64,000 nt of DNA from Escherichia coli (GTDB taxonomy: Bacteria; Pseudomonadota; Gammaproteobacteria; Enterobacterales; Enterobacteriaceae), in assembly GCF_009931435.1 (NCBI RefSeq), contig NZ_CP043414.1. One strand, 5' to 3'. A model generated the notes under the pieces. The model saw only the letters and a list, made by a program, of their open reading frames with translations. It was not told the DNA's origin and ran no database searches. Below are positions 407 through 621 of this stretch, piece after piece. Numbering within the stretch: position 1 is the stretch's first letter; each line of letters opens with the position of its first letter. Made by a program: the position numbers and the translations under genes.

Positions 407-440
407 TTTAATCATCCTGGTTAAGCAAATTTGGTGAATT

Positions 441-452
441 GTTAACGTTAAC
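441..452. promoter_or_regulatory. Perfect 12-bp palindrome GTTAACGTTAAC, putative LacI-family (CscR) operator, copy 1
   Basis: Perfect palindrome with central CG in the cscA/cscK divergent intergenic region; identical second copy 64 bp away. Confidence 0.4.
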
Positions 453-485
453 TTTTATAAAAATAAAGCCCCTTATCTTTATAAA

Positions 486-501
486 TGTGATTAATATCAC
501 A
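486..501. promoter_or_regulatory. CRP (cAMP receptor protein) binding site TGTGATTAATATCACA
   Basis: Perfect match to both half-sites of the TGTGA-N6-TCACA consensus, centred between the divergent csc genes. Confidence 0.6.
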
Positions 502-504
502 AAT

Positions 505-516
505 GTTAACGTTAAC
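505..516. promoter_or_regulatory. Perfect 12-bp palindrome GTTAACGTTAAC, putative LacI-family (CscR) operator, copy 2
   Basis: Identical to copy 1, including flanking bases (aNtgttaacgttaact). Confidence 0.4.
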
Positions 517-621
517 TATGACGTTTTGTGATCGAATGTGCATGTTTTAGTAAATCCATGACGATTTTGCGAAAAAGAGGTTTATCACTATGCCTAAGTC
601 AGATGAATTTGAGGGAAAAAA

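Follow-up and report, generated by a model that had tools for sequence, protein, structure and literature searches.

A conserved operator–CRP–operator arrangement in the divergent cscA–cscKB control region of Escherichia coli

In the lac system, the operators O1 and O3 are combined with a CRP site at −61.5, and in gal the operators OE (at −60.5) and OI are combined with a CRP site at −41.5. The control region of the Escherichia coli sucrose regulon csc resembles both in its LacI/GalR-family repressor, in the central CG of its operators, and in a layout that would place a primary operator over or near a transcription start and a second one just upstream of a CRP site. It is unlike them in that the operators are just 64 bp apart, the repressor CscR lacks the LacI tetramerisation helix, and a second, divergent promoter is present. 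Another described relative is the scrY promoter, at which the LacI-family repressor ScrR has twin near-identical palindromes, O1 and O2, that bracket the −35/−10 region, with a CRP site upstream (Jahreis and Lengeler, 1993, as summarised in PMC11251922). At a scr locus met during the present comparison (L013, 3494–3517 and 3550–3577), a porin gene is preceded by two TAAACCGGTTTAG-type palindromes at a distance of 58 bp from each other; these are ScrR operators, and the twin-operator design is shared with this paralogous regulon. The scr system differs from csc in its 14-bp TAAACCGGTTTAG-type operator, its repressor, its PTS-based transport and its promoter, which is not bidirectional.

The csc regulon itself has been described in strains EC3132 and W (Jahreis et al., 2002; Sabri et al., 2013), two reports followed here through PMC11251922 (Front Microbiol 2024) and PMC3938415. 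It is the same locus as the one treated below, with two 12-bp repeats, one or more Crp sites and divergent cscA and cscKB. According to PMC11251922, Jahreis et al. (2002) reported two 12-bp inverted repeats between cscA and cscK as putative CscR operators, and a derepressing up-mutation struck one of these repeats. The same source has a putative Crp-cAMP site adjoining the −35 element of cscA, depicts the operators on either side of the cscA −35/−10 region, the downstream one covering the transcription start, and states that the inverted repeats and the Crp site are conserved in other species. According to PMC3938415, cAMP regulates both the cscA and the cscKB units, a cyaA::Tn5 mutant is unable to grow on sucrose, and cscR knockouts derepress the regulon. 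That article also cites Sabri et al. (2013) for two cAMP-CrpA binding sites in the bidirectional promoter, and Jahreis et al. (2002) for a spontaneous ‘cscKB operator’ mutation leading to derepression and growth on low sucrose. Operators and a Crp site in the csc control region are already known, their description dating from 2002. No CscR footprint was found in the literature searched, which likewise yielded no useful promoter map or transcription-start data, and PMC6599523 and PMC3032704 add no promoter detail.

The window analysed here is a 64-kb stretch of E. coli DNA that begins inside cscA. The 5′ part of this gene, which encodes a GH32 sucrose hydrolase (Pfam PF00251, E 2.8e-44; RefSeq annotation), occupies 1–406 on the minus strand, is truncated by the window start, and has its ATG, as read from the sequence, at 406–404. 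On the plus strand follow cscK (622–1536), a PfkB-family fructokinase gene with its ATG at 622, identified by translation, by the RefSeq annotation of a near-identical genome and by protein search, and cscB (1608–2855), a sucrose permease gene of the MFS family identified by translation and the annotation of a near-identical genome. The same three gene names had been given in a preliminary description of the window, and translations, annotation and Pfam support them. The intergenic gap measures 215 bp, exactly 407–621; RefSeq annotates no regulatory feature in it, and an Rfam search of 300–800 gave no credible family match. The repressor gene, which the preliminary description had presumed to lie beyond the window, does adjoin cscA there, in convergent orientation, in a 99.8%-identical E. 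coli genome. Its product has matches to PF00356 and PF00532, Pfam domains of the LacI family, and the closest solved structure to it is 6NDI. The control region is present in 2662 of 5426 complete E. coli genomes, or about half. Further along the window, a tRNA-Arg(CCT) gene, presumably argW, lies at 6969–7043 on the minus strand, and the roughly 4 kb between it and cscB (2856–6968) carry torI-like, PACE-transporter and LysR-family genes, typical of a variable argW-adjacent island.

Two copies of GTTAACGTTAAC, a perfect 12-bp palindrome identical to its own reverse complement and carrying a central CG, stand in the gap at 441–452 (O_L) and 505–516 (O_R), 64 bp apart from start to start. The identity between them extends to 14 bp (TGTTAACGTTAACT at 440–453 and 504–517). 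They are the only exact copies in the 64 kb; at up to one mismatch 0.12 copies are expected, and none of 100 shuffles reached three. A one-mismatch copy, GTTAACGATAAC, at 58641–58652 lies inside long open reading frames and is probably a chance match. The palindromes have the properties of LacI/GalR-family operators, namely a length within about 12–20 bp with a central CG, a LacI-family gene at the same locus, and a conserved position in a promoter region. As the preliminary description had proposed, they can be assigned to CscR, for they match the published putative operators (PMC11251922 and PMC3938415, citing Jahreis et al., 2002). A cscR homologue stands beside the motif in every locus examined for one, and all six repressors compared keep the recognition helix VS(M/L)MTVSR and the hinge, a conservation that fits an unchanged operator. 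Upstream of cscR, no operator-like site with up to three mismatches occurs in E. coli or Pluralibacter gergoviae.

Between the palindromes, TGTGATTAATATCACA at 486–501 forms a CRP site (site 1, centre 493.5) in which both half-sites, TGTGA and TCACA, are perfect, with 33 bp separating it from O_L and 3 bp from O_R. An exact TGTGA-N6-TCACA occurs once in the window against 0.07 expected, and at least once in 7 of 100 shuffles. Elsewhere in the window, TGTGATTTCGGTCACT at 12448–12463 is a CRP-like site with one mismatch, of which about two are expected by chance. A second, weaker and putative CRP site (site 2), TGTGATCGAATGTGCA, lies at 527–542, its centre at 534.5 being 41 bp from that of site 1; in E. 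coli it carries three mismatches, all in the right half. The palindromes and site 1 had been placed exactly in the preliminary description, and they correspond to the published two repeats and Crp site (PMC11251922). The feature is real, correctly placed and correctly attributed to CscR and CRP. Its layout had also been called symmetric, a view that the distances contradict: the centre of site 1 lies 47 bp from the centre of O_L and 17 bp from that of O_R.

The region was compared across ten lineages spanning Escherichia, Citrobacter, Pluralibacter, Klebsiella aerogenes and Rahnella. The loci came from an Escherichia sp., a divergent E. coli, two Citrobacter amalonaticus strains, P. gergoviae and a second Pluralibacter-labelled genome (L012), together with the common E. 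coli allele (from an O157:H7 strain) and distant csc-like loci carried by large plasmids in Rahnella sikkimica and K. aerogenes, in which CscR identity is 61% and 55%, respectively. All ten share one order, operator, 33 bp, 16-bp CRP site, 3 bp, operator, so that the operator starts are 64 bp apart in every lineage. The operator is exact in 19 of the 20 copies: O_R, between the two CRP sites, in all ten lineages, and O_L in nine, with one mismatch in K. aerogenes. The position of CRP site 1 is fixed in ten of ten lineages, with zero to two half-site mismatches.

In an alignment of six sequences, the invariant runs of at least 5 nt are ATTGTTAACGTTAACTTT at 438–455 (18 nt), which is the context of O_L and is equally unchanged across the eight aligned lineages, ATAAAG at 463–468 (6), TGTGA at 486–490 (5), TGTTAACGTTAACT at 504–517 (14), GTTTTGTGATC at 523–533 (11) and GGTTTATCA at 579–587 (9). 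Four invariant runs of at least 8 nt arose in none of 10,000 column shuffles of this alignment, and beyond these blocks P. gergoviae shares just 38% identity with the window. The run at 523–533 comprises the left half of CRP site 2 and its flank, of which the core TTTTGTGATC (524–533) is still invariant in the eight-lineage alignment. Site 2 always begins 22 bp after the start of O_R, and it differs from the consensus by one mismatch in P. gergoviae (TGTGATCAAAATTACA) and in Rahnella (TGTGATCTGAAGCACA). It is absent only from the K. aerogenes locus, where cscR replaces cscK as the right-hand neighbour.

Loci with other gene orders help to separate the two sides of the region. In K. aerogenes (L016, 5807–5882), the operators and CRP site 1 are intact upstream of a leftward permease-invertase operon with cscR on the right, with neither CRP site 2 nor the GGTTTATCA block present. 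In Rahnella (L015, 9752–9827), they again stand upstream of a leftward permease-invertase operon, at a locus that has no cscK. The operator–CRP–operator series thus accompanies the invertase/permease operon in three gene arrangements, and from K. aerogenes and Rahnella it follows that the two operators and site 1 move together, accompanying the invertase-side promoter as one unit. The picture in PMC11251922, in which both operators would bracket the cscA promoter, gains support from this. CRP site 2 and the TATCA block appear to correlate with cscK, with the caveat that Rahnella retains site 2 and GGTTTATCC, the latter 7 bp closer to O_R, though no cscK follows. In K. aerogenes, with cscR as the divergent partner, autoregulation of CscR is a possibility. 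Two CscK protein searches for the rearranged csc locus of C. freundii, in which cscA and cscR are inverted, gave results dominated by E. coli variants and Klebsiella ScrK, and the contexts P0130, P0173 and P0127, considered as csc loci, were scr loci or too short.

On the cscA side, the conserved block AAnATAAAG at 460–468 reads TAT(T/C)TT on the minus strand from 465 to 460 and offers a candidate −10 element; L012, Rahnella and K. aerogenes either have its ATAAAG shifted or lack it. By sequence alone, the cscA −10 is ambiguous among three minus-strand candidates. TATTTT (465 to 460), present in the closer lineages only, would set the transcription start at about 453 and CRP site 1 at −40.5/−41.5, a class II position. 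TATAAA (459 to 454), present in Escherichia only and probably the published cscA −10 annotation, would give a start at about 447 with CRP site 1 at −46.5. TAACAA (444 to 439), which overlaps O_L, would move the start to about 432 and CRP site 1 to −61.5, a class I position. As O_L overlaps the −10/+1 region under every one of these candidates, steric repression at O_L is the safe reading. With TATTTT as the −10 element, O_L would extend from +2 to +13, and O_R would lie near −58, where it would resemble gal OE and lac O3.

On the cscKB side, the conserved plus-strand block GGTTTATCA(C) at 579–588 contains TATCAC (583–588), a candidate −10 element. GGTTTATCA is invariant in Escherichia, Citrobacter and the P. 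gergoviae type strain, L012 has GGTTTTATCA with one extra T, and TTTATCA (581–587) is invariant in the eight-lineage alignment. The centre of CRP site 2 lies 47.5–48.5 bp from the downstream TATCA(C/A) in E. coli, P. gergoviae and L012, across intervening sequence that is unrelated. If TATCAC is the cscKB −10, the start would fall near 595 and CRP site 2 would consequently sit at about −60.5/−61.5, a class I position. In TATCAC the final T, highly conserved among −10 hexamers, is missing, however, and no good −35 precedes it. A start at about 595 also puts O_R near −85 of cscKB, which is unusual for a repressor, yet the ‘cscKB operator’ mutation is reported as derepressing (PMC3938415). A consensus scan and a weight-matrix scan found no convincing conserved sigma-70 promoter on either strand of the region, and the −10-like hexamer TAACGT inside the operator yields spurious promoter predictions.

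The 215 bp are probably the bidirectional promoter–operator region of the chromosomal csc regulon, in which CscR acts at O_L and O_R, CRP site 1 serves cscA and CRP site 2 serves cscKB. The sequences, their exact conservation and spacing and their link with cscR are shown, as is the genetics by earlier work; which promoter elements are used, where transcription starts and what O_R does are inferred. CscR would bind both identical palindromes, and O_L, CRP site 1 and O_R would form one fixed unit controlling the leftward cscA promoter. At O_L, over the cscA −10/+1 region, bound CscR would block RNA polymerase, and CRP at site 1 would activate cscA from roughly −41 if TATTTT (465–460) is the −10 element. 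From O_R, just upstream of site 1, CscR may block the function of the alpha-CTD or of CRP, or may cooperate with O_L over 64 bp, about six helical turns; alternatively, O_R may serve to repress cscKB from its place between the CRP sites. For the rightward promoter, CRP site 2 at about −61 (class I) and TATCAC as the −10 are the most likely elements, and O_R would then lie upstream of the cscKB promoter, with a CRP site on either side of it. The invariant 64-bp spacing is compatible with phasing of the operators, but would follow just as well from a fixed promoter geometry. CscR, at 331 amino acids, has no LacI-type C-terminal tetramerisation helix, which leaves looping between the csc operators unproven.

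The principal competitor follows the preliminary description in having the single CRP site at 486–501 activate both divergent promoters, each with an operator of its own. TTGTGA at 526–531 would then be the cscKB −35, with a −10 near 550–556 (GTAAAT or TAAATC) and a start near 562–563, and O_R would stand between the CRP site and the −35, where it would block class I activation. Such a promoter suits a repressor better, O_R being nearer the core promoter than it is at about −85, and the right half of CRP site 2 in E. coli, with its three mismatches, speaks for it, as do the four of six matches of TTGTGA to TTGACA and a weakly conserved G-AAA at 550–554. Against it, CRP site 1 would sit at about −68.5 to −69.5, 2–3 bp off the class I phase (−61.5 or −71.5), and the −10 shows little conservation and is without the key A2 or T6. 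Nor does the model account for GGTTTATCA, a strongly conserved block that keeps a fixed distance from TGTGATC. The equivalent of 527–542 is moreover a near-consensus CRP site in Pluralibacter and Rahnella, and two Crp sites appear in the literature (PMC3938415). The published second site, the conservation of 527–542 and its loss only where cscR replaces cscK together make a single shared CRP site quite unlikely. The related claim that each promoter has its own operator agrees with the wording of PMC3938415, whereas PMC11251922 and the comparative data better fit both operators bracketing the cscA-side promoter.

It might also be supposed that the repeats have no regulatory role and reflect chance or structural duplication, as tandem HpaI sites or a hairpin palindrome. 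GTTAACGTTAAC is a tandem GTTAAC hexamer that could arise by slippage, and the region is AT-rich. Against this, sequence and 64-bp spacing are conserved in ten lineages that include Yersiniaceae, while identity in the flanks drops as low as 38%; the motif is always accompanied by a cscR homologue with a conserved recognition helix; and the region has no Rfam match. Operator mutations that derepress are also published (PMC11251922 and PMC3938415). Conservation and published genetics effectively refute this reading, which has next to no chance of being right.

The perfect CRP site 1 of the window is a rare allele, the exact 40-mer 478–517 occurring in 37 complete E. coli genomes, and the common allele, TGCGATGAATATCACA (TGCGA; L008, 180–195), occurs in 2585. 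Compared with csc of EC3132 and W, the window differs at the allele level only, carrying the rare TGTGATTAATATCACA in place of the common TGCGATGAATATCACA. Outgroups mostly have TGTGA, which suggests that the common E. coli TGCGA allele is derived and weaker; L012 has TGCGA as well. A second kind of variant, seen in 2 of about 2660 csc-bearing E. coli genomes, O84:H7 strain Trh52 (L007, 2494–2533) and CT265, is a 64-bp deletion exactly between the operator repeats that corresponds to 441–504 of the window. In both genomes a single operator is left, and neither CRP site 1 nor the −10 region of cscA survives. The operator repeats can recombine, deleting the cscA promoter.

Two further readings are tentative and on balance doubtful. 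One is that the two operators and two CRP sites form a single nucleoprotein unit, in place of one operator for each promoter; the other is that the TGTGA allele is the ancestral, stronger CRP site. In the former, CscR at O_R would be wedged between two CRP dimers, with 3 bp to site 1 and 10 bp to site 2, and anti-activation or pairing of O_R with O_L would control both divergent promoters together. The 33/3/64-bp geometry seen across Enterobacteriaceae and Yersiniaceae would be compatible with such a unit.

The csc regulon enables E. coli W and engineered K-12 strains to grow on cheap sucrose, which gives its control region practical value. To the published account, the present comparison adds that the rigid operator–CRP–operator geometry is conserved well beyond E. 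coli, that it follows the invertase-side promoter through gene rearrangement, and that the allele with the perfect CRP site is in the minority. If TGTGA is ancestral, TGCGA, which about 97% of csc-positive E. coli possess, would contribute to the notoriously slow growth of these strains on sucrose.
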